Below are positions 2,341-16,160 of a stretch of 64,000 nucleotides of DNA, one piece after another (the first letter of the stretch is position 1; each line of letters opens with the position of its first letter). Origin of the DNA: Candidatus Dormiibacterota bacterium (lineage in GTDB: Bacteria > Chloroflexota > Dormibacteria > Aeolococcales > Bog-877); assembly GCA_049279335.1 (NCBI GenBank), contig JBAPNX010000007.1, forward strand, positions 7,013 to 71,012, written 5' to 3'. The notes below the pieces were generated by a model. It ran no database searches and was not told the origin of the DNA. It saw only the letters and a list, made by a program, of their open reading frames with translations. The translations under genes were made by a program, and so were the position numbers.

Positions 2341-2570
2341 ATGCACCCCATTTCGGAGCGGTCGGCCTCCCGCGACCGCCCAGGTTTGACAGCCTAAGTG
2401 ACGGCCTGGCGAGCGGACGACTGGCTCATGGGATGGACGCGACTGGACGGCGATCGGGCAAATCGATCTCACACTGAACGTCTGCGGGCGTGGCTGGACG
2501 ACCTCCCCTAAACTTGCAAACGGCTGGGGCCGCAAGGCTCCTCGGGGTTCGAATCCCCGTCCCTCCGCCA
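2341..2570 (+). ncRNA. tmRNA-like structured RNA (partial or divergent ssrA) ending in tRNA-like T-arm + acceptor + CCA
   Basis: 3' end 'CTCGGGGTTCGAATCCCCGTCCCTCCGCCA' is a canonical T-stem/T-loop (GGTTCGAATCC) plus 7-nt acceptor strand, discriminator and CCA. Upstream there is a short reading frame ending '...GLTA*' followed by 'TAAGTGACGGCCTGG', which resembles the post-tag region of actinobacterial tmRNA as I recall it ('TAAGCGACGGCTAG'), plus a downstream 'GCGACTGG..GATCGG' block. No 5' acceptor partner (GGRGGGR) was found. Confidence 0.4.
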
Positions 2571-2976
2571 TCTTGTGGGGTATAGCGTTGGTGGTGGAAG
2601 TAGCACACTCGGATCGTCCTTCCGCGCCTGGCGACTACGTGGACGTGAGGTGTGCAGCTCGCCCGACCTCTATCGTCAGGTGTTCTTGGTCCCACCACTT
2701 CACGCCGGTGCTACCCGCCAGCCTGACGCGGCAACAAGTGAACCCGCTCGGAGCGACGCAGATGGCTCTCGGAGCCCCATAGTGGGCCCGTGCCGCCACT
2801 ACCTCCTGAATGGCGGGACTCCACATCGCTGCCCCAGTGCTTAGCCTGGACCGCAATGGCGTGATCGGTCCCTCCATCAACCACAACGTCCGCGCCGAAG
2901 TCCTCGCTACGCGGCGTGGTCTCGACCCGTTCGTGACCCAGGGCGAGACAGAATCCCGCCAGGTGGAGGCAGCCTC

Positions 2977-3948
2977 ATGAGAGCAGTAGTCTTCGACAAA
3001 TACGGGCCTCCGGAGGTTCTGCGCCTCGAGGAGGTCGAGCCGCCTGTGCCGAGGGATGACGAGGTGCTGGTCAGGATCCACGCCGCGACGGTCAGCCGCA
3101 CGGATACCGGGCTTCGCGGCGCCGACTTGTTCATCTCACGCCTTGTCACGGGTCTCCTCCAGCCCAGGCGCAGGATCCTGGGCAGCGACTTGGCCGGGGA
3201 AGTCGAGGCGGTCGGCGCAACAGTGACCGAATTCGAGGTCGGTGACCACGTATTCGGCCTCAATCCCTGGAAGTTCGGCACCCATGCTGAGTTCGTCTGC
3301 ATGCGGGCGAGCGCGGCACTGGGGCTCATGCCGTCCGATATGAGCTTCGATGAGGCGGCAGCGATCTGCGACGGGGCGATCCTGGCGCTGAATGCCCTAA
3401 GGCCGGCAGAACTTCGACAGGGGCAGAGGATCCTCGTGTATGGCGCCTCCGGATCCATCGGCACCGCTGGGGTCCAGCTGGCCCGAGCCTTCGGCGCCGA
3501 CGTCACCGCGGTGTGCAACACGAAGAACTTCGAGCTTGTGAGATCGCTGGGAGCCGACGAGGTCATCGACTTCACGCAGGAAGACTTCACCAGGAATGGC
3601 CGAACGTACGACGTCATATTCGACTCAGTCGGCCACCAATCGTTCAAGCGGTGTCGGGCCTCACTGAAGCCAGGCGGGTTTTACGTTGCCACCGACCACA
3701 TGTACAACCTGGTGCTCGCCTTGTGGACCGCGCGGATCGGAGACAAGCGAGTGGTGTTCCCCCTACCGCCGCGCTTTACGAAGGAGGACGTCGCGTTCCT
3801 CAAGGAGCTAATCGAGGCGGGGAAATACCGAGCCGTCATCGATCGGCGATACCCGTTGGAGCAGGTGGTTGAGGCAACCCGCTACGTCGAAACGAAGCAG
3901 AAGATCGGAAACGTCGTTCTGACTGTCAGCCACGACAATGCGACCTGA
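2977..3948 (+). CDS. NADPH:quinone oxidoreductase / zinc-type alcohol dehydrogenase (MDR superfamily)
   Basis: 323 aa; 'MRAVVFDKYGPPEVLRLEEVEPPVP' N-terminus, Rossmann 'VYGASGSIGTAGVQLA', typical zeta-crystallin-like architecture; RBS-like GGAGG upstream. Confidence 0.85.
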   Translation: MRAVVFDKYGPPEVLRLEEVEPPVPRDDEVLVRIHAATVSRTDTGLRGADLFISRLVTGLLQPRRRILGSDLAGEVEAVGATVTEFEVGDHVFGLNPWKFGTHAEFVCMRASAALGLMPSDMSFDEAAAICDGAILALNALRPAELRQGQRILVYGASGSIGTAGVQLARAFGADVTAVCNTKNFELVRSLGADEVIDFTQEDFTRNGRTYDVIFDSVGHQSFKRCRASLKPGGFYVATDHMYNLVLALWTARIGDKRVVFPLPPRFTKEDVAFLKELIEAGKYRAVIDRRYPLEQVVEATRYVETKQKIGNVVLTVSHDNAT

Positions 3949-3989: not shown

Positions 3990-4145
3990 AGCTCGCGGAT
4001 TTTACGGCCTAAGCGACGGCCTAGCGAACGGACGGGTAGCTGAGGCAGGGACCCCACTGGACGTCGATCGGGCCCCGTCGATCTCAATTTGCATGTCGCT
4101 GGAAGGGTCTGGACGACTTCCCCTGAACTTAAAAACCAGGTCCAC
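3990..4145 (+). repeat. Second copy of the tmRNA-like ~150-nt element (copy B)
   Basis: Shares with 2385-2530: '...TTTTACGGCCTAAGCGACGGCCTAGCGAACGGACG...CCACTGGACGTCGATCGGGCCCCGTCGATCTCA...CTGGACGACTTCCCCTGAACTTAAAAAC' (blockwise ~70-80% identity, same order). Confidence 0.4.
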
Positions 4146-4793
4146 TCACGTGCATATGTCCGGGATGCTCTGCTTTGTCACCCTGCCAGCTCGGATCACG
4201 GAGTCGTCCAGGGCTCGACGCTACTCGCCGCCGCGTAGTGGCGCCTCAGCACATAGCGCCCGGGTTTTAGGTCGAACTGGTGGCTCTGGTGGGCGGCGAC
4301 GGACTCAGACGCGACCAGTTCCCTGGGAAACAGAAACGAGACGCCTGCGCCCGGATTAGGGATCGACTTCACTGTTCCCCGCAGCACAGTAGCCGCCCCG
4401 GCGACGAAGCCCTAGCCTTTCGCTACTGGGAGGCCTGAGCAATCATCGATACCTCCCACAACCACTCCTCGCCGGTCGGGACATTGGCTGGGATCGAAAG
4501 GGTCTCGCGTGCCTGGCAGCCGACCAACGCCAACACTGGGCCAGCTAGAAGGACAGCGCGCCACCATCCGCTACCGGCTGAGCGCCACGCCATTGAGCGC
4601 CGGATGCCTTGCCGAGTCCGATATACCGTCTAAAAGTATGCTGCTAGCCAGCCGGGAGGTTACGCTCACAGTTCCGGTTCCGCGGTTGTGAAAACGGGCG
4701 GAGCGACGAGCCGTGCTGACCTGGTCGGCAGTCAGCCAGACCAGGCTGAAGAATTCGTGCGTGTCCCGAAGGATTCCCTTTGGGGCCACTCCC

Positions 4794-5138
4794 TCAGCCG
4801 AAGAGCTGCACACTTTGAATCAGTCCGTCCGCGACTCGGTACGCCGCGGCTGCATGCACCTCGGTTGGCATACCGGGCAGGCCGAAACCGGTGATGAACT
4901 CCTCGTCGAGGACAAACGGACCCACCTCGATCCGAGCACGGATCTCGGCATGCAACTTAGGGCTCTGCCCGAATAGCTCGCCATAGCGAGCGCGGATCTC
5001 AGTCTGTCCATCGGCTAGCAAGCTTCCGTCCGGCTGAGAAATCCGGGCGTCGGCAGAGTAGCAGGCGACGAATGCGTCGAGAAGGCACAGATTGTAGGCA
5101 GCGATCTGTCGGTCGACCAGCTCAGTCGCTTGGCTCAT
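4794..5138 (-). CDS. NTF2-like / SnoaL-like small protein
   Basis: 114 aa, no TM; size and composition of ketosteroid-isomerase-like fold proteins; flanked by ~35-bp direct repeats. Confidence 0.45.
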   Translation of the reverse strand: MSQATELVDRQIAAYNLCLLDAFVACYSADARISQPDGSLLADGQTEIRARYGELFGQSPKLHAEIRARIEVGPFVLDEEFITGFGLPGMPTEVHAAAAYRVADGLIQSVQLFG

Positions 5139-5331
5139 TTGTACTCCCGTAGGCCCAGGAAACCGACGCGTCAGCTAGGCGTCAGACCGCTCCGCATAGT
5201 ACAGCGGCTCCTGAAGGAGCGGACTTGTCGGCGGTTTTGAAAACCCGCGGAGCGGGGCTTGTGCGTGGCGAACCGGGTCGGGGTGGGCGGGAGCAGCTAG
5301 GGCCGGCCCACCTCATTCACTCCTCTGCTAC

Positions 5332-6738
5332 TCAGCCTTCGACTCCGGGCTGGGTGCTCCGTTCCCACGCCTGCGCTCCCATCTGGATGGCATCCCAAGG
5401 GCTTCCAAGCGGCGGGGCATATGAGAGGTCAAGGTCGCTGATGGCATCGACCGTCATGGAGTGGAAGATCGCCGTGGCGGCGATGTCGATCCGTTTGGCG
5501 ACCTCAGCGTTGCGGTTTCCAAAGAGCTGGACTCCTAACAGTCGTCCGGTACGCCGATCCCCGGTGTAGCGCATCGAGATCGGATGACTCCCTGGGTAGT
5601 ACGCCTTGTGGTCGTTGGCCTCGGACTCCACGGTGACCGGATCGTAACCAGCCGCCGTTGCCTCGTGGTCACGAAGTCCAGTGCGGGCGGCTGCTGTCTC
5701 AAAGACTTTTACCACCTGGGTTCCAAGACTGCCCTGAAATTCTCGCGTTCCCCCCAGCGCGTTCTCCCCGGCAACCCGCCCCTGCTTATGGGCGGTAGTC
5801 CCTAGCGGGAGATACGACTCTCCCAGGAGGCGGTGGTAGGTGACGACACAATCTCCGGCCGCGAACACACCCTCAAGATTGGTTCGCATCTGCCTATCAA
5901 CCGAGATTGCCCCTCGAACGCTGAGGTCAGCACCTGCTGACTTCGCCAAATCCGTCTCCGGACGGACGCCCACGACCACGAGGATCAGGTCGGCAAACTG
6001 GGTAATAGGTTCCCCGTCAGCGAGTTCCGCGGTTACTTCGAGTCGAGCTGCAGCACCGGGGGCCGCAACAGAGATGAGTCGCACCGTGGTTCCCGTCAAC
6101 ACCTGGACTCCGTGATCAACCAGCTCAGCACGAATGAGTCGGCCAAGCTCTGGGTCAACGGTGGGGAGGACTTCTGGGAGTTGCTCGATCTGGGTCACGG
6201 ACAGGCCACGGGCAACTAGAGCCTCTGCCATCTCGAGGCCGATGTAGCCGGCTCCAACGACGATGGCGTTCGCCGGTGAAGTCTTCTCTAAAGTCGCCAT
6301 GACGGCAAAGGTGTCGCCCATGGAATGAAGCAGATGGACGCCTTGATCGACGCCCAGCGCATCGGGTCCGACCAATCCAGCGATCGGCGGCTGGACAGGG
6401 ACCGCGCCCGTTCCCACGACTATCGAGTCATATTCGAGCAGGTCATTTTCTCCGTAGCGATTGGTAACGAGTAGCCGCCGCTCGCCGACATCAATTCGTC
6501 GTGCCGTGGTATCTAGCCGAAGCGTCATTCCTGTCGCTTCTAGCTCCCCCACCGTTCGGTGCGCCAAGTTGTGCCAGTCGGTGACCTCGCCGGAGACGTA
6601 GTAGGGAATGCCGCAGATCGAAAAGTTTGGATAACCGTCTGCGACCACTACCGTGACGTCGGCCCGGGGATCGAGTTCTAGGGCTCGAAGTGCCGCGCTG
6701 ATCCCGGCATCACTACCGCCGACCGTAATGAGACGCAT
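5332..6738 (-). CDS. FAD-dependent pyridine nucleotide-disulfide oxidoreductase (CoA-disulfide reductase / NADH oxidase family), last gene of the ars operon
   Basis: 468 aa; N-terminal 'ITVGGSDAG' FAD fold, redox Cys in 'NFSICGIPYY', second Rossmann 'VVGAGYIGLEMAE', C-terminal dimerisation domain. Confidence 0.8.
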   Translation of the reverse strand: MRLITVGGSDAGISAALRALELDPRADVTVVVADGYPNFSICGIPYYVSGEVTDWHNLAHRTVGELEATGMTLRLDTTARRIDVGERRLLVTNRYGENDLLEYDSIVVGTGAVPVQPPIAGLVGPDALGVDQGVHLLHSMGDTFAVMATLEKTSPANAIVVGAGYIGLEMAEALVARGLSVTQIEQLPEVLPTVDPELGRLIRAELVDHGVQVLTGTTVRLISVAAPGAAARLEVTAELADGEPITQFADLILVVVGVRPETDLAKSAGADLSVRGAISVDRQMRTNLEGVFAAGDCVVTYHRLLGESYLPLGTTAHKQGRVAGENALGGTREFQGSLGTQVVKVFETAAARTGLRDHEATAAGYDPVTVESEANDHKAYYPGSHPISMRYTGDRRTGRLLGVQLFGNRNAEVAKRIDIAATAIFHSMTVDAISDLDLSYAPPLGSPWDAIQMGAQAWERSTQPGVEG

Positions 6739-6803
6739 CGGTCACTCCTCTTTGCGCTGGCATCGGTGTCAAGCTCCGGCCATGGACGAGGATGTCGCCT
6801 TTG

Positions 6804-7430
6804 TTAGCCGCCAACTGCAAGCTCAGCGGCCAGAGACTTCACCCGCTCGTCGATCTCGTCGCGGATACGGCGTACCGTCGGGAGTGACTTGCCCTGTGGG
6901 TCTTCAAGCTCCCAGTCGAGGTAACGCTTACCGGGGTAGAGGGGACAGGCGTCCCCACAACCCATGGTGACGACGACATCAGCGGCGCGGATCACCTCTT
7001 CCGTGAGCGGCTTGGGGAAGTGCTTGGAGATGTCCAAACCTATCTCGCTCATTGCCTCGACTACGGCGGGATTTAGAGTCGAAGCCGGCTCGGAACCGGC
7101 TGAGAGAACGTGGACACTGCCTCGAGCGTGATGATCGAGGAGAGCAGCTGCCATCTGCGAACGACCGGCGTTGTGGACGCAGACGAACAGGACCTCGGGT
7201 ACCTTGGACTCGATCCGTCCCTCAACGAGGGCGGTGGCACGTAGCCGGTCACGGGCGAAGCGCTCAGCGAAAGTTGGCAGGAAGTTGGGAACGGAGGCTG
7301 TCTCGGCCAGCTCCTGGTAGCACTCCAGCACACACGCCTCAACCGTCTGTGGGCTGAAGACGCCGGCGAACTCAGAGACGAGGGTGTTGGTCTCTGACTG
7401 GAGTCGCTGCTGCACGTTGAAAATGCTCAT
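6804..7430 (-). CDS. arsC: Arsenate reductase, LMW-PTP type, with an N-terminal ~70-aa extension
   Basis: LMW phosphatase P-loop 'CVHNAGRSQMA' (CX5R) plus downstream Cys in 'MGCGDACP'; start ATG 7430 overlaps the stop of the upstream aquaporin gene (ATGA). Confidence 0.75.
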   Translation of the reverse strand: MSIFNVQQRLQSETNTLVSEFAGVFSPQTVEACVLECYQELAETASVPNFLPTFAERFARDRLRATALVEGRIESKVPEVLFVCVHNAGRSQMAAALLDHHARGSVHVLSAGSEPASTLNPAVVEAMSEIGLDISKHFPKPLTEEVIRAADVVVTMGCGDACPLYPGKRYLDWELEDPQGKSLPTVRRIRDEIDERVKSLAAELAVGG

Positions 7431-8179
7431 GAGGCTGTCTCCTCTGATATGGATCCGTGGGGCACGACAACGACCTCGGCGATCTCGCGAGCATCGGGAT
7501 GAAGGTAACGGATGGCTACCCAAGCGATAGCCGCGCCGCATAGCTCAGCGGCGATGAACGGGACCACCGACGCTGGGCTGATCCCCGAGAACGTATTGGA
7601 GAGAGTGCGGGCCAAGGTCACTGCAGGGTTGGCAAAGCTGGTCGACGAGGTGAAGAAGTACGCCCCAGTAATGTAGGCGCCGACCGCGAATGGAACGACG
7701 GTGCTCCTGCCACTCCGCGTTATACCGAAGATGACCAGAAGCAGCCCGAACGTGGCCACGACCTCGCCAAGCCAGAGACCAGGGCCCGATCGGAGATGGA
7801 CCGAAAGACTGACCGGGGCGAGAGAAAACATAAGGTTGGCTACGATGACGCCAACGACGGCGCCGCCGATCTGGGCGGTGATGTAGGCGAGGAGCTCGCG
7901 CCGACCTAGGCCACCGAGAGCGGCGTCGACAAGCGAGACCGCTGGATTGAGGTGGGCGCCGGAGACCGGGCCTAGCGCGAGGATGATCACGGCCAGGGCA
8001 CAGCCGGTGGCCACGGCGTTCTCGAAAAGTTCGAGCCCGGCGTCGCCAGGACTCAGCCGCTGTGCGGCGATGCCCGAGCCTATCACCGCCAATAGCAGCA
8101 GGGCGGTGCCAAGAGTCTCGGCCACCGCCTTGCGCAGCAACGACGGCGCCCTCAGGTGGTGGTCGACTGGCATCGGCAA
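7427..8179 (-). CDS. Aquaporin / aquaglyceroporin (MIP family), probable arsenite channel
   Basis: 250 aa; six TM segments; two NPA boxes 'HLNPAVS' and 'FANPAVT'. Confidence 0.85.
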   Translation of the reverse strand: MPMPVDHHLRAPSLLRKAVAETLGTALLLLAVIGSGIAAQRLSPGDAGLELFENAVATGCALAVIILALGPVSGAHLNPAVSLVDAALGGLGRRELLAYITAQIGGAVVGVIVANLMFSLAPVSLSVHLRSGPGLWLGEVVATFGLLLVIFGITRSGRSTVVPFAVGAYITGAYFFTSSTSFANPAVTLARTLSNTFSGISPASVVPFIAAELCGAAIAWVAIRYLHPDAREIAEVVVVPHGSISEETAS

Positions 8180-9063
8180 CCAACCCCCGCAGTGGCCTGA
8201 AGGCCGCAGCAGTCGCTCTTAGAAGAGGAGTCGCAGCAGATTGATTGGGCGGAAGTGTCACAGCAGGACGGATTTGGTTTGCGGGCTCGGACGATGGCCG
8301 AGCCCGCATGCCTGTGCACGCGGTGGGTCTCTGTGATCTCGGTGTCGGTGAGACCGGCATCCTCGAGCGCCTGCTCGAACTCTCGGCGGGTCAGCGCTCC
8401 AGCAACGCAACCCGTGAATGCCTCCACATCTCTCCGCGTGGCTTCGTCCATGTCGTCGTCGGCGATCACGTCGGAAACCGCGAAGCGCCCGCCTGGCCGT
8501 AGAACACGCGCGGCTTCCCGCAGTACCCGGGGTTTGTCAGTTGACAGGTTGATGACGCAATTGGAGATCACCACGTCGACGGACTCCGCCGGGAGCGGAA
8601 TGTCCTCTATCCGGCCACGCAACCAATGCACATTGGCGAGGCCAGCTTTCCGCTGGTTCTCCACTGCAAGGGTGAGCATCTCGTCGGTCATATCGAGACC
8701 GTAGACCCGACCCGTCGGACCAACCCGTCGGGCTGAGAGGAGCACATCGATGCCACCGCCCGAGCCGAGATCTAGTACCGTCTCCCCGTCATGCAGCTCA
8801 GCCATCGCGGTCGGGTTGCCGCACCCCAGGGATGCGAGCCGCGCGGTTTCAGGCAGCTCATCACGCTGCTGCGCGGAGTAAAGGCTGGCACCGAACAGGT
8901 CGCTGGCGTCGCCCTCAGGCAGGGTGCCGCAGCATCCCGATTCGGCTGCGGGGATGGCACAGCCGCTTGCGGCGGTGGCGCTCACCTCGCGGGCGGCGAT
9001 GGCGTAGCGCTCGCGGACGGCATCGCGGAGCCGATCGGAGTCGGTCGGTTGATCTTGGGACAT
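8152..9063 (-). CDS. arsM: Arsenite S-adenosylmethionine methyltransferase
   Basis: SAM motif 'VLDLGSGGGIDV'; conserved arsenic-binding cysteines ('SGCAIP', 'GCCG'); Cys-rich C-terminal tail; divergent from arsR. Confidence 0.85.
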   Translation of the reverse strand: MSQDQPTDSDRLRDAVRERYAIAAREVSATAASGCAIPAAESGCCGTLPEGDASDLFGASLYSAQQRDELPETARLASLGCGNPTAMAELHDGETVLDLGSGGGIDVLLSARRVGPTGRVYGLDMTDEMLTLAVENQRKAGLANVHWLRGRIEDIPLPAESVDVVISNCVINLSTDKPRVLREAARVLRPGGRFAVSDVIADDDMDEATRRDVEAFTGCVAGALTRREFEQALEDAGLTDTEITETHRVHRHAGSAIVRARKPNPSCCDTSAQSICCDSSSKSDCCGLQATAGVGCRCQSTTT

Positions 9064-9137
9064 CGTCACCTGCAACTGCATCCGCTGGTGCAGGTTCCGC
9101 AAGGACAATCACAGGACATTCGCCAGAGGCTCCTATA

Positions 9138-9195
9138 TTGACTAAGATCGATGTATGATGAGGAGATGGTACTCGGTAGATCGACCTATGTCAAT
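9138..9195. promoter_or_regulatory. Imperfect palindrome ATTGACtaaGATCGA..N..TCGAcctatGTCAAT in the arsR/arsM divergent promoter (candidate ArsR operator)
   Basis: Inverted repeat arms at 9138-9152 and 9181-9195, located between the divergent arsM and arsR genes. Confidence 0.3.
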
Positions 9196-9571
9196 GCATA
9201 GAAGCCACGCCGCGACCACGGTTGTGAAATTCGGTGAGTTTGCGGCCCCGGAGCGGATCAAGGGCTGCTCCCAGCCGGTGGCCCCACCTTTGGACGCCAC
9301 CCAAGCCAGCGAGGTGGCGGCCCTGGGAAGGGCTCTCGGAGACCCGACCCGGGTACAGATCATTCACATCCTGGTCGCGGCCACCGAGCCTGTCTGCGTC
9401 TGTGACTTCACTGCCGCGTTCGACCTTGGCCAGCCCACCATCAGCCACCATCTCGCGAAGCTCCGCCAAGCCGGCCTCGTGACCTGTTTCAAGCGAGGCC
9501 TCTGGGCCTTCTACCAGCTCAACCCCGAGATGTCCGATCGAGCCAGACTGGCGGTGCAGCTGATTCCCTGA
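9155..9571 (+). CDS. arsR: ArsR/SmtB family metalloregulator
   Basis: HTH 'RVQIIHILVAA...CVCDF...QPTISHHLAKLRQAGLV' with metal-binding CVC motif; start may be the internal ATG at 9188/9194. Confidence 0.8.
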   Translation: MMRRWYSVDRPMSMHRSHAATTVVKFGEFAAPERIKGCSQPVAPPLDATQASEVAALGRALGDPTRVQIIHILVAATEPVCVCDFTAAFDLGQPTISHHLAKLRQAGLVTCFKRGLWAFYQLNPEMSDRARLAVQLIP

Positions 9572-9574
9572 CCA

Positions 9575-9720
9575 CGGCTCGCAGATTTGACAGCCTAACC
9601 TGCGGACGGCTGGCTCACGCGACGAACGCCACTGGACGTCCGGAAGGCAATCCTTCGGGACCGCACGAAGTACCATCCCGATCAGGGTGAAGCGATCGAA
9701 TCGGACGTGAAAGCGGGATC
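9575..9720 (+). repeat. Third, more divergent copy of the tmRNA-like element (copy C)
   Basis: 'GATTTGACAGCCTAACCTGCGGACGGCTGG...GCCACTGGACGTCCGGAAGGCAATCCTTCGGGA' matches the TTTGACAGCCTAA / GACGGC / CACTGGACG blocks of copies A and B, with a compensatory hairpin CCGGAAGG/CCTTCGGG. Confidence 0.3.
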
Positions 9721-10360
9721 TGGTGCGCTAGAGGAGCTGACGACCATCTCGCCGCCATGGAGGGTATCCCTTGAGCTGAGCTGGGACGCCTACTGCGCCG
9801 GAAGTGCGCCTGTCGGAGCGGTGGTCACAGATGCTTCTGGTGCGATCGTCGCGCACGGAAGAAGTAGGTGGTTCGAACCGACCGCCCCGTCGGGGCAGCT
9901 TGCAAACACTCACCTGGCCCACGCTGAAGTCAACGCTTTAGCCGGGCTGACGCCCGGCAATTACGAGGACCACACTCTCTACACCACCCTCGAGCCGTGC
10001 CTCCTCTGCACCGCAGCGACGATCCATTCACACGTCGGCACCGTGAAGTACGCTGCCAGTGACCCGCTGTGGGAAGGGCTGCGTCGACTTCCTGAACTCA
10101 ATCAACATATTTCCCGCAGATGGCCGCGGTGGGATGGGCCTCTGGTCGGCCCAATTGGGGGCTGGAGCCTGCTGCTCGCGATGGTATGGCATCTGCAGCG
10201 CGAACCAGACTCAGTCGTCGTCCGGGCGTACGAGGGCACAATGTCAGATGCGCTGGCCATCGCCCGCCGGACGCTGGCTGCCGGAATACCGGCGAAGGGA
10301 GGCACTCTCGATGATGCGATGGCCTCGGCGTCGCCGCTACTTGAGCCTGGACCGTCTTGA
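9707..10360 (+). CDS. Cytidine/deoxycytidylate (nucleoside/tRNA adenosine) deaminase family protein
   Basis: Zinc motifs 'HAEVNAL' and 'PCLLC'; start codon uncertain (GTG 9707 or ATG 9766). Confidence 0.6.
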   Translation: MKAGSGALEELTTISPPWRVSLELSWDAYCAGSAPVGAVVTDASGAIVAHGRSRWFEPTAPSGQLANTHLAHAEVNALAGLTPGNYEDHTLYTTLEPCLLCTAATIHSHVGTVKYAASDPLWEGLRRLPELNQHISRRWPRWDGPLVGPIGGWSLLLAMVWHLQREPDSVVVRAYEGTMSDALAIARRTLAAGIPAKGGTLDDAMASASPLLEPGPS

Positions 10361-11501: not shown

Positions 11502-13217
11502 ATGGGTACGCAGCCACTGACAGCATCGGCTAGCGAGCTCGGCATGACCACTAAGCAGGTAGTTGTTCTCGGTGCCCCGGGCCGGGGGGGGTATCGACAG
11601 CTTGAGGTTGGCACGGGCGAACCGGTGCGGCTGCGCACTGATCTAGGAGGCAGCGTGCCTTCGCCGCGGCTCCGCTCGCTTCTCGCCTTCGTCCAACTCT
11701 CTGACCTTCACGTGACTGACGTCCAGAGCCCAACCCGGGCTGAGTTCCTCGACCGCTCAGTGGATGAGGAGGGGACGCAGGTACGGGCGGGCACCTACCG
11801 GCCCCAGCAGGCCCTGTCTTGCCAGGTAGTGGAGGCGGCAGCGCGGACGGTGCGGGCGCTGTCCGGTGGCCCGGCGGCTGGTGCCCCTCTCGCATTCGCG
11901 ATATCTACCGGCGATGCCGCTGATAACGGCCAGCGCAACGAGCTAGTCGCTTATTTGGCACTGCTCGACGGAGGCCGAGAGGTGGTCCCTGACTCGGGTG
12001 ATCCGGAACGCTACGAAGGCGTCGATGTCTCCGACCCGTACGACACCGGCTACTGGCATCCCGACGGCACTCCACCCGGTCAGCCTGACGACCTGGCACG
12101 TGCGCGCCGCGGCTTTCCCGAGGTGGCGGGCCTGCACCAAGCCTGCCGCAAGCCTTTCGTGGCGACAGGACTCGGCCTGCCGTGGTATGCCGTGTACGGC
12201 AACCACGACGCCCTGTTGGCTGGCGCTGTCCCACCGGTCGCTGCGCTGGTCTCGCGGGCAGTTAGTGGGGACAAGCTGAGTCTGCTTGACCTGGAAACGG
12301 ATGTGGTTGACCTGCTCATCGCCACGGAGACAGAGCCGCAGATCGATTTCTGGCTCAGGGCCGGCTGCAGAACCCGTCCCGTCACCTCCGATCCTGCGCG
12401 CCGACCGGTGCAGGCCCAGGAGTGGATTGCCGCCCACCGGGAGCTGCCGGGTGAGCCCTGCGGACACGGCTTTGACGCAGAGGCAGCGGCCAGCGGTCGC
12501 GCGTACTACCGCATCGACAGCGGCATGGTCAGCTGCCTGATCCTGGATACCGTCAATCGGGCCGGCGGTTGGCAGGGGAGTCTGGACGCCGACCAGTTCC
12601 GCTGTCTGGAGAGTGAGCTGGTCGCCGGGCATGGCCACTACTACGACGCGTCCGGCGAGGATGTCTGGGCCAGTGCCTCGGACCGACTGTTCATCCTCGC
12701 AAGCCACCACCCGCTGGAGTGCTTCGTCAACGCTTATCCGCCCGACGGGCCGCCCCGGGTGCTGCGAGACGAAGTCCAGCTGATGTTGGCGCGCTTCCCG
12801 AACGTCGTCTTATGGGTCAACGGGCACACGCACATGCACACCATCGTCCCCTTCCCGGCAGGCCATGGCAAAGGGCGAGCTACCGGCTTCTGGCAGGTGA
12901 CCACCTCGTCTCTGATTGACTGGCCCCAGCAAGCTCGCTCCATAGAGCTGGCGGTCGATGAGACAACGGGCGACCTGGTCATTACTGCGGTAGCGGTCGA
13001 CCACAGCGGCCGAGTCAACCCCGCGGGCCAATCTCTGGACGACATAGACGTCCTCGCTGGCTGGTCACGCGAGTTGGCCGCAAACGCCTGGCAGCGGCGC
13101 CGCATCCCATCGGAGCCCGATGGACAGGGGACTGCGGATGATCGCAACGTGGCCTTGGTGGTCCCGGCACCCTTCCCCCTCACGGGGGCCAGGCGGCTAG
13201 AGTCCGGTTCCAGCTAG
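11502..13217 (+). CDS. Calcineurin-like metallophosphoesterase (large actinobacterial type)
   Basis: 571 aa; 'LSDLHVTD', 'GDAADNG', 'AVYGNHD', 'GHTHMH' metallophosphatase motifs. Confidence 0.75.
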   Translation: MGTQPLTASASELGMTTKQVVVLGAPGRGGYRQLEVGTGEPVRLRTDLGGSVPSPRLRSLLAFVQLSDLHVTDVQSPTRAEFLDRSVDEEGTQVRAGTYRPQQALSCQVVEAAARTVRALSGGPAAGAPLAFAISTGDAADNGQRNELVAYLALLDGGREVVPDSGDPERYEGVDVSDPYDTGYWHPDGTPPGQPDDLARARRGFPEVAGLHQACRKPFVATGLGLPWYAVYGNHDALLAGAVPPVAALVSRAVSGDKLSLLDLETDVVDLLIATETEPQIDFWLRAGCRTRPVTSDPARRPVQAQEWIAAHRELPGEPCGHGFDAEAAASGRAYYRIDSGMVSCLILDTVNRAGGWQGSLDADQFRCLESELVAGHGHYYDASGEDVWASASDRLFILASHHPLECFVNAYPPDGPPRVLRDEVQLMLARFPNVVLWVNGHTHMHTIVPFPAGHGKGRATGFWQVTTSSLIDWPQQARSIELAVDETTGDLVITAVAVDHSGRVNPAGQSLDDIDVLAGWSRELAANAWQRRRIPSEPDGQGTADDRNVALVVPAPFPLTGARRLESGSS

Positions 13218-14385: not shown

Positions 14386-14913
14386 TCATCTTGGGCCTGG
14401 CGGCCGGTGGCCCTCGTGCGGGGGCAGTGGAATCGACTCAATGCCCGGTGGCTGATCCGGCCACACCAGCAGAACAGAACAAGGAGCGTGGTCGACAACG
14501 AACCGCGTGGTCGGGCCCAAGCTCCTAGGCCCGAGATGCGAGCGGTCACCGTCGCGCGCCGCAACCAGTAGATCAACGTCCTGGGCGACTGCTAGGACAA
14601 CTTCGCGCTCAACCCTGCCTTGTCGATGGAGAAGCTCAGCATCCTGCCGGCCCAGCCGCGAGGCGGCGGCAGCGAGCAACTCGGCCGCCGCCTCATCAGC
14701 TATGTCCTGGTACTGGTGCGGAGGAGTTCGTATTGGAAACGCCCTTCCAAGTAAGGCGCCCGCGGCTGCCTCCGCAACCTCGCTCGGATCCGACGGTGTG
14801 ACGTGGAGAAGCGCCACTCGGACGTCCGGGGGAATGCGGTCGGCCACCGCATCGACACATCCCCGCCAGGTCCCTTCGACCAACCAGAGAACGACCCGCA
14901 CGGGGTGAATCAT
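14386..14913 (-). CDS. Universal stress protein (UspA domain)
   Basis: 175 aa starting 'MIHPVRVVLW'; USP fold features 'LLVAARDGDRSHLGP..GPTTRFVVDHAPCSVLLV'; ATGA overlap with upstream permease. Confidence 0.7.
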   Translation of the reverse strand: MIHPVRVVLWLVEGTWRGCVDAVADRIPPDVRVALLHVTPSDPSEVAEAAAGALLGRAFPIRTPPHQYQDIADEAAAELLAAAASRLGRQDAELLHRQGRVEREVVLAVAQDVDLLVAARDGDRSHLGPRSLGPTTRFVVDHAPCSVLLVWPDQPPGIESIPLPPHEGHRPPGPR

Positions 14914-16160
14914 CCCACCAGCCGCAAGGAGACCCAGAGGGCGACGGTTGCGGCGAGGAGCACGGGAGGCACCGTGATAGCTCCAAGGCGCATGAACTCC
15001 GAAATAGGGAGTTCCTCCCCGCGCCTCCTGAGGACGCGCCGCCACAGCAGAGTGGCGAGGGAGCCCGCGTAAGTCAGGTTGGGTCCGGTATTTACCCCGA
15101 TAAGCACCGCGAGCACCGGGCCGACTCCCACAGCGGCGGCCACCGGAAGAAGGAGGAGTACAGCCGGGAGATTGTTGATCAGGTTGGCGAGTACAGCAGC
15201 GATGACCGCAATCAGAAGCAGCGAGCCAAGCGAGGTTCCCACCGGAAAGAAATGCATCGCCAGCGAGGCGAGCCCGTGGAGGGAAAGGGTTTTCACGACG
15301 AGCCCCAGAGCCAGCACGAAGGCGAGGAACGGAACATCGACCGCGAGCGCGACATCGCGAAGCGTGGCGCGGCGGCTGAGCACCGCTGGCACGACGAGTA
15401 CTACAGCGCCTCCCAGTGCCGCAAAGGCTGGAGCGACGTGAATGATCGACGTCGCGACGAACCCGGCTAGCGTGAGCCCCACCACCGCCACGGCGAAGCC
15501 CGCAACCCTCGGCGGTGTCCCAATGGCAATCTCGCCTTGCCCAACCAAGTCGGTAGCGAAGAAGCGCCGCAGCACCAACCATTCGACTCCGATCGCCGCC
15601 AACCATGGCAGCGCCATGGTTTCACCGAAGCGGACAAACGACAACCCGGTGGCGCTGAAGGCCAAGAGATTGGTGAGGTTGGACACCGGTAGGAGCAGTG
15701 ATGCGGAGTTCGCGAGGTGGGTGCAGGCATAGACTTGCGGCTTGGCGCGGATCCGCAGCCGAGCTACCGTCGCTAATACGACTGGGGTAAACAGAACCAC
15801 GGTTGCGTCAAGGCTCAGCACAGCGGTGATCGTGCTTGCCACCGCGAAGACGAGCGCCAGGAGCGCGACCGGTCTACCGCGGGAACGGATAGCCATCCAG
15901 GCGCCGGCAGCTTCGAACAGACCGTAGCGATCGCACATGTGGGCGAGGACGAGGATCGCGGCGAGGAAGCCAACAGTTGGACCGAGACCCCTCACTTCGG
16001 CAACAGCCTGGCTCACTGGCAAGGCTCCGAGCAGCAGCAGGAGTCCAGCCGCCGGAACCGCGACGAGGGCTTCCGGCAACTCTCGTGGTCGGACGATGGC
16101 GCAGGCCAGGGTTGCGAGTAGGAGGAGACCGGCTGCCGCCTCGGCGATGGGACCTGGCAC
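14910..16160 (-). CDS. ArsB/NhaD-superfamily permease (arsenite efflux / citrate-transporter-like)
   Basis: 416 aa, ~12 TM; 'SLDATVVLFTPVV', 'NLINNLPAVLLL' characteristic of the ArsB/YbiR family. Confidence 0.7.
   Translation of the reverse strand: MPGPIAEAAAGLLLLATLACAIVRPRELPEALVAVPAAGLLLLLGALPVSQAVAEVRGLGPTVGFLAAILVLAHMCDRYGLFEAAGAWMAIRSRGRPVALLALVFAVASTITAVLSLDATVVLFTPVVLATVARLRIRAKPQVYACTHLANSASLLLPVSNLTNLLAFSATGLSFVRFGETMALPWLAAIGVEWLVLRRFFATDLVGQGEIAIGTPPRVAGFAVAVVGLTLAGFVATSIIHVAPAFAALGGAVVLVVPAVLSRRATLRDVALAVDVPFLAFVLALGLVVKTLSLHGLASLAMHFFPVGTSLGSLLLIAVIAAVLANLINNLPAVLLLLPVAAAVGVGPVLAVLIGVNTGPNLTYAGSLATLLWRRVLRRRGEELPISEFMRLGAITVPPVLLAATVALWVSLRLVG

Follow-up and report, generated by a model that had tools for sequence, protein, structure and literature searches.

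Repeats around an arsenic gene cluster in a Dormibacterota genome: probable attachment-site remnants of islands at tRNA-Ser(UGA)

A 64,000-nucleotide stretch of a Candidatus Dormiibacterota genome (contig JBAPNX010000007.1, positions 7,013 to 71,012; hereafter the window, with coordinates prefixed W) carries three copies, A, B and C, of an intergenic repeat, all on one strand, in the vicinity of a cluster of arsenic genes. The source is an uncultured soil bacterium. The copies are probably not RNAs; they are most readily interpreted as DNA-level attR-type remnants, each comprising a P arm and a core, of tyrosine-integrase islands that were serially inserted at the anticodon loop of a tRNA-Ser(UGA) gene. 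The array is best described as an integrase-less accretion that resembles cis-mobilizable elements (CIMEs; PMC5704250). An earlier, sequence-only reading had proposed scars of serial integration at ssrA, the transfer-messenger RNA (tmRNA) gene. Direct repeats beside an RNA gene, flanked accessory cargo and the loss of the integrase were all retained from that proposal, but the target was found to be tRNA-Ser(UGA), located after serS.

Displaced tRNA-Ser(UGA) fragments and anatomy of the repeats

The window lies within a 319 kb contig of a metagenome-assembled genome (MAG; ENA ERZ25039540 contig_21926). The DNA upstream of it was fetched through a window protein, on a contig denoted L007 (L-numbers are used here for the other contigs and loci compared), on which window position 1 corresponds to position 9764. 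This contig carried aspS, serS and then, directly after serS, an intact tRNA-Ser(UGA) gene (L007:2720-2809), 9.7 kb upstream of copy A and approximately 7 kb before the start of the window. Copy A was followed by a displaced 3' fragment of this gene (Table 1), which begins in the anticodon loop (CTTGCAA), includes the long variable arm and ends in CCA. Another fragment in the same genome (L007:6486-6546) covers tRNA positions 28-90. The direct-orientation tRNA-Ser 3' fragments, which included two in relatives, all started at tRNA positions 28-35 (W2513-2570, L007:6486-6546, L011:2133-2188 and L012:15428-15482). Two of the features by which Islander recognizes islands were thus present, namely an intact tRNA gene with a same-orientation cognate 3' fragment, and a fragment start at a canonical crossover sublocation, the anticodon loop.

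Copies A (W2385-2521) and B (W4000-4136) were 74.6% identical over 138 nt (E = 3e-20), and their alignment contained single-base indels, so that the similarity is not protein-coding. A profile built without copy C matched it at W9586-9640 only (approximately 55 nt; nhmmer E = 8e-8), and local Smith-Waterman alignments of C with A and B gave z values of approximately 10-11 above shuffles; past W9640, C had no significant similarity to A or B. The alignment of A with B and the profile match to C bore out the earlier claim of three same-orientation copies; the recurrence of approximately 150 nt that it described held for A and B over the aligned length, but for C only over the stretch matched by the profile. 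The conserved blocks that had been named were also confirmed: TTTGACAGCCTAA and (C/G)ACTGGACG were found in the copies, and TTTKACRGCCTAA occurred at three sites only in the window, namely A, B and C. A profile search of the window returned no copy besides these three. Two further copies, D and D2, were contributed by a relative with approximately 80% nucleotide identity (L010/L011); D was followed by only approximately 21 nt of tRNA-like sequence, and D2 by a full tRNA-Ser 3' half. When the strict element pattern was used, one locus of a relative was matched in the metagenome contigs, in two samples, and nothing was matched in the viral contigs. BLAST searches with copy A gave phage matches in the tRNA-Ser part only, all annotated tRNA-Ser genes, and no plasmid matches.

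The copies shared a common layout. It starts with a tandem 12-mer pair, such as TGACAGCCTAAG TGACGGCCTGGC (a single 12-mer in C and D2), continues with GGAC(G) repeats and ends in a core that resembles the anticodon loop (CTTGAAA); in D, three 10-bp tandem units lie immediately 5' of the core. The distance from the start of the second 12-mer to the start of the loop was 114 nt in both A and B, 118 nt in C, 116 nt in D and 115 nt in D2. Despite differing intervening sequence, the same distance was found in L012 (114 nt), whose arm is otherwise unlike that of A, B and C and whose 12-mer is TGACGGCAACC, and in the viral contig L097 (112 nt), giving a spacing of 112-118 nt across seven sites. The core of B sits within an inverted repeat, CCTG..CAGG, and the degenerate core of C (CGTGAAA, W9706-9712) overlaps the start codon of a deaminase gene while retaining its spacing. 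This deaminase gene had the same upstream context in all of the contigs checked. The conserved blocks recur in direct orientation at a phasing of 10-12 bp, as is typical of protein-binding DNA. What had been taken for the middle of an RNA appears instead to be an island-side attachment arm, made up of the 12-mer pair, the spacer repeats and the anticodon-loop core.

A 12-mer pair was also present 67 nt past the intact tRNA-Ser gene (copy T0, L007:2876-2899). Outside the 12-mers, the left flank of A was only marginally similar to the sequence that flanks the intact tRNA (score of 34 vs 22.7 ± 3.2 for shuffles). Upstream of the L007 tRNA fragment, at L007:6415-6450, CAGATTTGATCTAAAAACCAG resembles the two extreme ends of the element, a few bases each, fused together; speculatively, it may be a P arm with an internal deletion.

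Recurrence beside integrase genes and across relatives

The 12-mer pair was found in one contig, L097, when viral contigs were scanned. This contig represents a mobile element that also carries terminase and primase genes, and it encodes a tyrosine integrase (PF00589 and PF14659) whose stop codon abuts TGACAGCCTATCTGACAGCCTAAC. The order on L097 was TGACAGCCTATCTGACAGCCTAAC, 100 nt, the anticodon loop and 3' half of tRNA-Lys(CUU), 43 nt and TGACAGCCTAACTGACAGCCTAAC, a layout that matches the one inferred for the copies and that uses the same 12-mer. The L097 integrase belongs to a large family and was 35% identical over its full length to Dormibacterota integrases located at tRNA-Ser; such integrase genes lay 86-87 nt after tRNA-Ser in three relatives (L040, L048 and L029). 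Searching the viral contigs with the L097 integrase returned L097 itself only. Three chromosomal relatives of this integrase, with approximately 70% identity, were encoded beside intact tRNA-Lys genes, and each had an element-specific 12-mer pair (TGAAACCCTA, TGACACACT) 42-43 nt past the tRNA-Lys 3' end, next to the integrase stop codon. An attP-like arrangement, in which arm repeats flank a core on either side at fixed distances next to an integrase gene, was found in L097, L106, L107 and L109. On the basis of the L097 layout and the 12-mer pairs of the tRNA-Lys relatives, the 12-mer pairs were read as arm-type integrase sites. A separate scan of the viral contigs with TGACGGCAACNNTGACGGCAAC matched coding Gly-Asp-Gly-Asn repeats, which were set aside as irrelevant.

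The relatives of serS placed the organism within Candidatus Dormibacterota. The linkage of serS to tRNA-Ser(UGA) was conserved across Candidatus Dormibacterota loci, with aspS and serS homologues in 37-39 of them. In no relative did the DNA downstream of tRNA-Ser contain a homologue of any window gene from the tRNA to approximately W16000, and synteny with the relatives broke at the tRNA-Ser gene, which therefore forms the edge of a hypervariable region. Gene content that is absent from the same locus in relatives is a further Islander feature. Several MAG contigs ended at or within this tRNA-Ser. The comparison with related genomes that had been suggested earlier did reveal variable gene content; however, its boundary was the tRNA-Ser gene and the region was larger than the proposed island at 3990-9720, since it starts at the intact tRNA some 7 kb upstream of the window and reaches beyond the B-C bracket. 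The closest complete relative, L012, contained at this locus a 4 kb integrase-less island with genes for a TetR regulator, a glycosyltransferase and an F420H2 quinone reductase, with tRNA-Ser at one boundary and, at the other, a 3' fragment beginning at tRNA position 33. A tandem 12-mer pair was present at +30 to +130 of tRNA-Ser in 12 of 21 Dormibacterota loci (11 at +54 to +70 and one at +102), and the background density was 0.29 pairs per kb. Between lineages, the two units of a pair changed in concert (GACAGCCTAA, GACGGCAAC, GATACCAAC and GATGCCAAC).

The proposed mechanism takes as its observed basis the layout and its recurrence beside an intact integrase gene; its protein-binding step and its order of events are conjectural. 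An integrase would bind tandem 12-bp arm-type sites of the TGACAGCCTAAG type, located on each side of a core whose sequence is that of the anticodon loop, at a distance of approximately 100 nt. Integration would rebuild the tRNA from an island-borne 3' half, and the old 3' half would be displaced to the far end, as after copy A. Repeated integrations would push older junctions rightwards, giving B and then C. Later loss of the integrase genes and of most tRNA halves would leave a CIME-like composite that holds the quinone oxidoreductase, SnoaL and arsenic genes.

Several other observations were made at this locus. In L031, two full tRNA-Ser(UGA) genes lie 3 kb apart (12655-12744 and 15749-15839), each followed by a 12-mer flank, so that the entire tRNA and approximately 115 nt more are duplicated at the boundaries of the intervening island. 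Integrase gene fragments between serS and tRNA-Ser in two relatives (L015:13518-13733 and L044:14453-14602) indicate that the 5' side of the tRNA has received insertions as well. Homologues of a phosphoesterase-family gene at W1119-2090 were located upstream of aspS/serS in seven relatives (64-72% amino acid identity); here the gene is downstream of the tRNA, within the variable array.

A second motif, termed beta, GGGGTATAGCG(N13)GTAGCACA, was present after both tRNA-Ser fragments of this genome (W2577-2608 and L007:6553-6584) and after the intact tRNA-Ser of a relative (L023:15028-15060), at 6-8 nt past the CCA throughout. It had no inverted partner in the window and represents a second type of attachment site or end. 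A conspecific MAG (GCA_052325525.1, approximately 99.9% identical) departed from the window at W2591, at the fragment boundary. This strain appears to hold an extra segment (L005:1-330; L008:12340-12670) in which a variant beta motif, GGGGTATAGCGTTGGGCGTGAAAGTAGCACAG, is present as inverted copies of approximately 32 bp. The segment, whose interior was unassembled, is flanked by a 15-nt direct repeat, CCTCCGCCATCTTGT, that equals the tRNA 3' end plus 6 nt, and it suggests that a second insertion system is active at this locus, with the 3' end of the tRNA fragment as its site. Pfam searches of the strain-specific insertion ends and of the open reading frames (ORFs) near the beta motif gave nothing informative.

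Weighing of the explanations

The derivation of the copies from a tmRNA gene by serial integration at ssrA was judged extremely improbable. A T-arm, an acceptor strand and CCA do follow copy A, and tmRNA genes are known targets of islands (PMC4383910), but the supposed tmRNA-like element proved to contain tRNA-Ser(UGA) positions 33-90; its T-arm and acceptor are 95% identical to that tRNA, long variable arm included, and the intact tRNA-Ser gene is situated upstream beside serS. ARAGORN and Rfam found neither a tmRNA nor a tRNA in the window, with ARAGORN at its default and Rfam at both the gathering score and E≤10, and a call obtained from ARAGORN with relaxed thresholds was rejected as having an implausible 564-nt span and an unidentified tag. 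Inspection of W2200-2384 revealed no 5' strand able to pair with the 3' strand of the acceptor. The 3' end of an alanine-acceptor tmRNA, which pairs with a 5' GGGG end, was likewise ruled out, the end being that of a tRNA-Ser(UGA) with its long variable arm.

It is also very unlikely, although less so, that the copies are a cis-regulatory RNA or members of a dispersed structured non-coding RNA family, the latter being the alternative offered in the sequence-only reading. Such an origin would fit copies that are intergenic, approximately 150 nt long and all on one strand, with hairpins at similar positions in A/B and C. Nevertheless, the folds of A, B, C and T0 were no more stable than those of shuffles (z of +0.1 to +1.4, + strand), and RNAalifold gave the five-copy consensus a weak fold of -6.55 kcal/mol with a covariation term of +2.88, a penalty, so neither stability above shuffles nor covariation was found. 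The hairpin that had been described as maintained by compensatory changes did not survive this analysis: the A and B stems are identical, and hence show no covariation, the C hairpin is unrelated and D has none. There was no Rfam match, the conserved blocks are phased direct repeats as described above, and all of the copies fall within the tRNA-Ser variable region. An integron attC array was considered as well, GCCTAAC being present in C, D and T0; it was rejected because inspection revealed no inverted GTTRRRY partner at the 3' end of any copy, and hence no inverted core (R''/R' = RYYYAAC..GTTRRRY).

More serious, but still unlikely, is the explanation that the repeats are arrays for another DNA-binding protein (an operator, a partition site or the iterons of an integrated plasmid), or that they are native tRNA-Ser flank that underwent local segmental duplication. 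In its favour, most Dormibacterota have the 12-mer pair downstream of tRNA-Ser, with or without an evident island, the present locus lacks an integrase, and direct repeats reach approximately 110 nt beyond the tRNA in L012 and L031. Against this, the arrangement of pair, spacer and anticodon loop recurs beside intact integrases, at a different tRNA and in another phylum, and the anticodon loop, a canonical sublocation, is where the tRNA fragments start.

The interpretation as attachment-site remnants of islands at tRNA-Ser was thus preferred, and the following observations weigh against it. No integrase or excisionase was detected in the window and the 9.7 kb upstream of it, either by tblastn with the L040/L048 and L097 integrases or by Pfam analysis of 57 ORFs. 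Relative to the orientation of the tRNA, the L097 integrase gene lies on the other side of the att region from those of its chromosomal relatives. The 12-mer pairs are putative arm-type sites, and integrase binding to them is inferred from their layout. Simple serial integration predicts a tRNA 3' half at each junction; this half is absent at B and C, where the right flanks were not tRNA-like (p = 0.46 and p = 0.21, respectively), and is largely absent at D. Deletion, att-site damage or secondary-site events are invoked to account for the missing halves. Damaged att sites, tandem arrays and anticodon-centred attP sites are documented in Islander (PMC4383910), and CIMEs and accretion are described in a review of integrative and mobilizable elements (PMC5704250). 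As the pair is so common downstream of tRNA-Ser in the phylum, it could belong natively to the chromosome and be imitated by the islands. The GC check that had been suggested earlier did reveal a shift, from 65-67% in aspS/serS to 60-64% downstream, but this was weak and not decisive. With respect to CIMEs, which keep attL and attR without integration or transfer genes, the genes were absent, A was a complete attR-type site, and B and C consisted of arm and core only.

A bolder version, which was considered doubtful, is that the integrase-less segments, each of which keeps a P arm and an anticodon-loop core, may still be active cassettes. In that case an integrase of the family with TGAYRSCHAM arms would act in trans, shuffling cassettes of one or a few genes (quinone oxidoreductase, DoxX or arsenic genes) at tRNA-Ser. 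Hints in this direction are that the conspecific strain differs exactly at the fragment boundary and that 12-mer pairs are phylum-wide and lineage-variable. If true, this would constitute a tRNA-anchored cassette-accretion platform across the Dormibacterota.

Cargo genes and comparison with known systems

The genes between and around the copies are listed in Table 1. As the sequence-only reading described, B and C flank the small-gene module and the ars cluster at the positions given; the ArsB-family permease, however, lies outside this bracket. A quinone oxidoreductase homologue (L011:2297-3268, 76% amino acid identity) was found inverted in L011, directly after its tRNA-Ser fragment and 12-mer flank. 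Homology between the two loci (L011:2297-3268 and W2977-3948) is confined to the coding region, which indicates that the gene was transferred whole from one att-flanked position to another. The gene that adjoins the ArsB/CitMHS permease is annotated in other contigs of this species as encoding a Usp-family protein. Elsewhere in the window, a repeat of approximately 264 nt (88 amino acids) occurs at least 14 times in tandem in a long ORF (W42040-46280), with 60-74% identity between copies; the product is probably a repetitive surface or adhesin-like protein.

Table 1. Positions of the repeat copies, tRNA-derived sequence and cargo genes in the window
Feature	Position	Strand	Remarks
Copy A P arm (putative attR-type)	2385-2512	+	12-mer pair TGACAGCCTAAG/TGACGGCCTGGC at 2387-2410; internal GGAC(G) repeats; 114 nt spacing
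Displaced tRNA-Ser(UGA) 3' fragment	2513-2570	+	tRNA positions 33-90; 58 nt; 55/58 identical (94.8%) to L007:2720-2809
Beta motif GGGGTATAGCG..GTAGCACA	2577-2608	+	6 nt past CCA of tRNA fragment
Zinc-type quinone oxidoreductase	2977-3948	+	cargo between A and B
Copy B P arm	4000-4136	+	12-mer pair at 4002-4025; core CTTAAAAAC at 4128-4136
SnoaL-like protein	4794-5138	-	cargo
Arsenic cluster	5332-9571	mixed	five genes
Pyridine-nucleotide disulfide oxidoreductase	5332-6738	-	
ArsC-type low-molecular-weight phosphatase	6804-7430	-	
MIP channel	7427-8140	-	
ArsM-like methyltransferase	8152-9063	-	
ArsR	9194-9571	+	
Copy C, older diverged P arm	9586-9712	+	single 12-mer TGACAGCCTAAC at 9588-9599; conserved to 9640; 118 nt spacing
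ArsB/CitMHS-family permease	14910-16160		outside B-C bracket

These results correct the target from tmRNA to tRNA-Ser and place the arsenic and redox genes of this genome in a hypervariable island-accretion site. Serial islands at a tRNA gene are an ordinary route by which bacteria gain accessory genes such as those for arsenic resistance. They also document, in the uncultured Dormibacterota, how the attachment sites of a widespread family of tyrosine integrases are laid out, with paired 12-bp arm repeats, fixed spacing and an anticodon-loop core; this layout could help to delimit islands in MAGs after the integrase has been lost.

Arm-type integrase sites in the attP of lambda and of mycobacteriophage L5 are adjacent direct repeats on both arms, and in lambda the Xis sites lie between the P-arm pair and the core. 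The sites studied here are similar in having adjacent direct-repeat pairs approximately 100 nt either side of a core and extra tandem repeats between the P-arm pair and the core; they differ in their 12-bp repeat unit of the TGAYRSCHAM type, and their binding proteins are inferred from the layout. Like islands that target ssrA, the array stands beside a small stable-RNA gene, but that gene is tRNA-Ser(UGA) and there is no ssrA in the window. It shares with the tRNA island arrays of Islander (sublocation classes of Williams 2002) an intact tRNA, direct 3' fragments that start in the anticodon loop, variable cargo and a break in synteny, whereas here no island keeps an integrase and junctions B and C, two of the three in the window, are without a tRNA fragment. 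Compared with the ICESt1-related CIMEs of Streptococcus thermophilus, in so far as these are summarized in the review (Pavlovic 2004 and Bellanger 2011, via PMC5704250), the array, as read here, has likewise lost its integration genes, kept att sites and accumulated in tandem at one target gene; unlike those CIMEs, it has partly damaged att sites, belongs to another phylum and has no conjugation genes that were seen. The array is not a new kind of system, but a known kind in a little-studied phylum.

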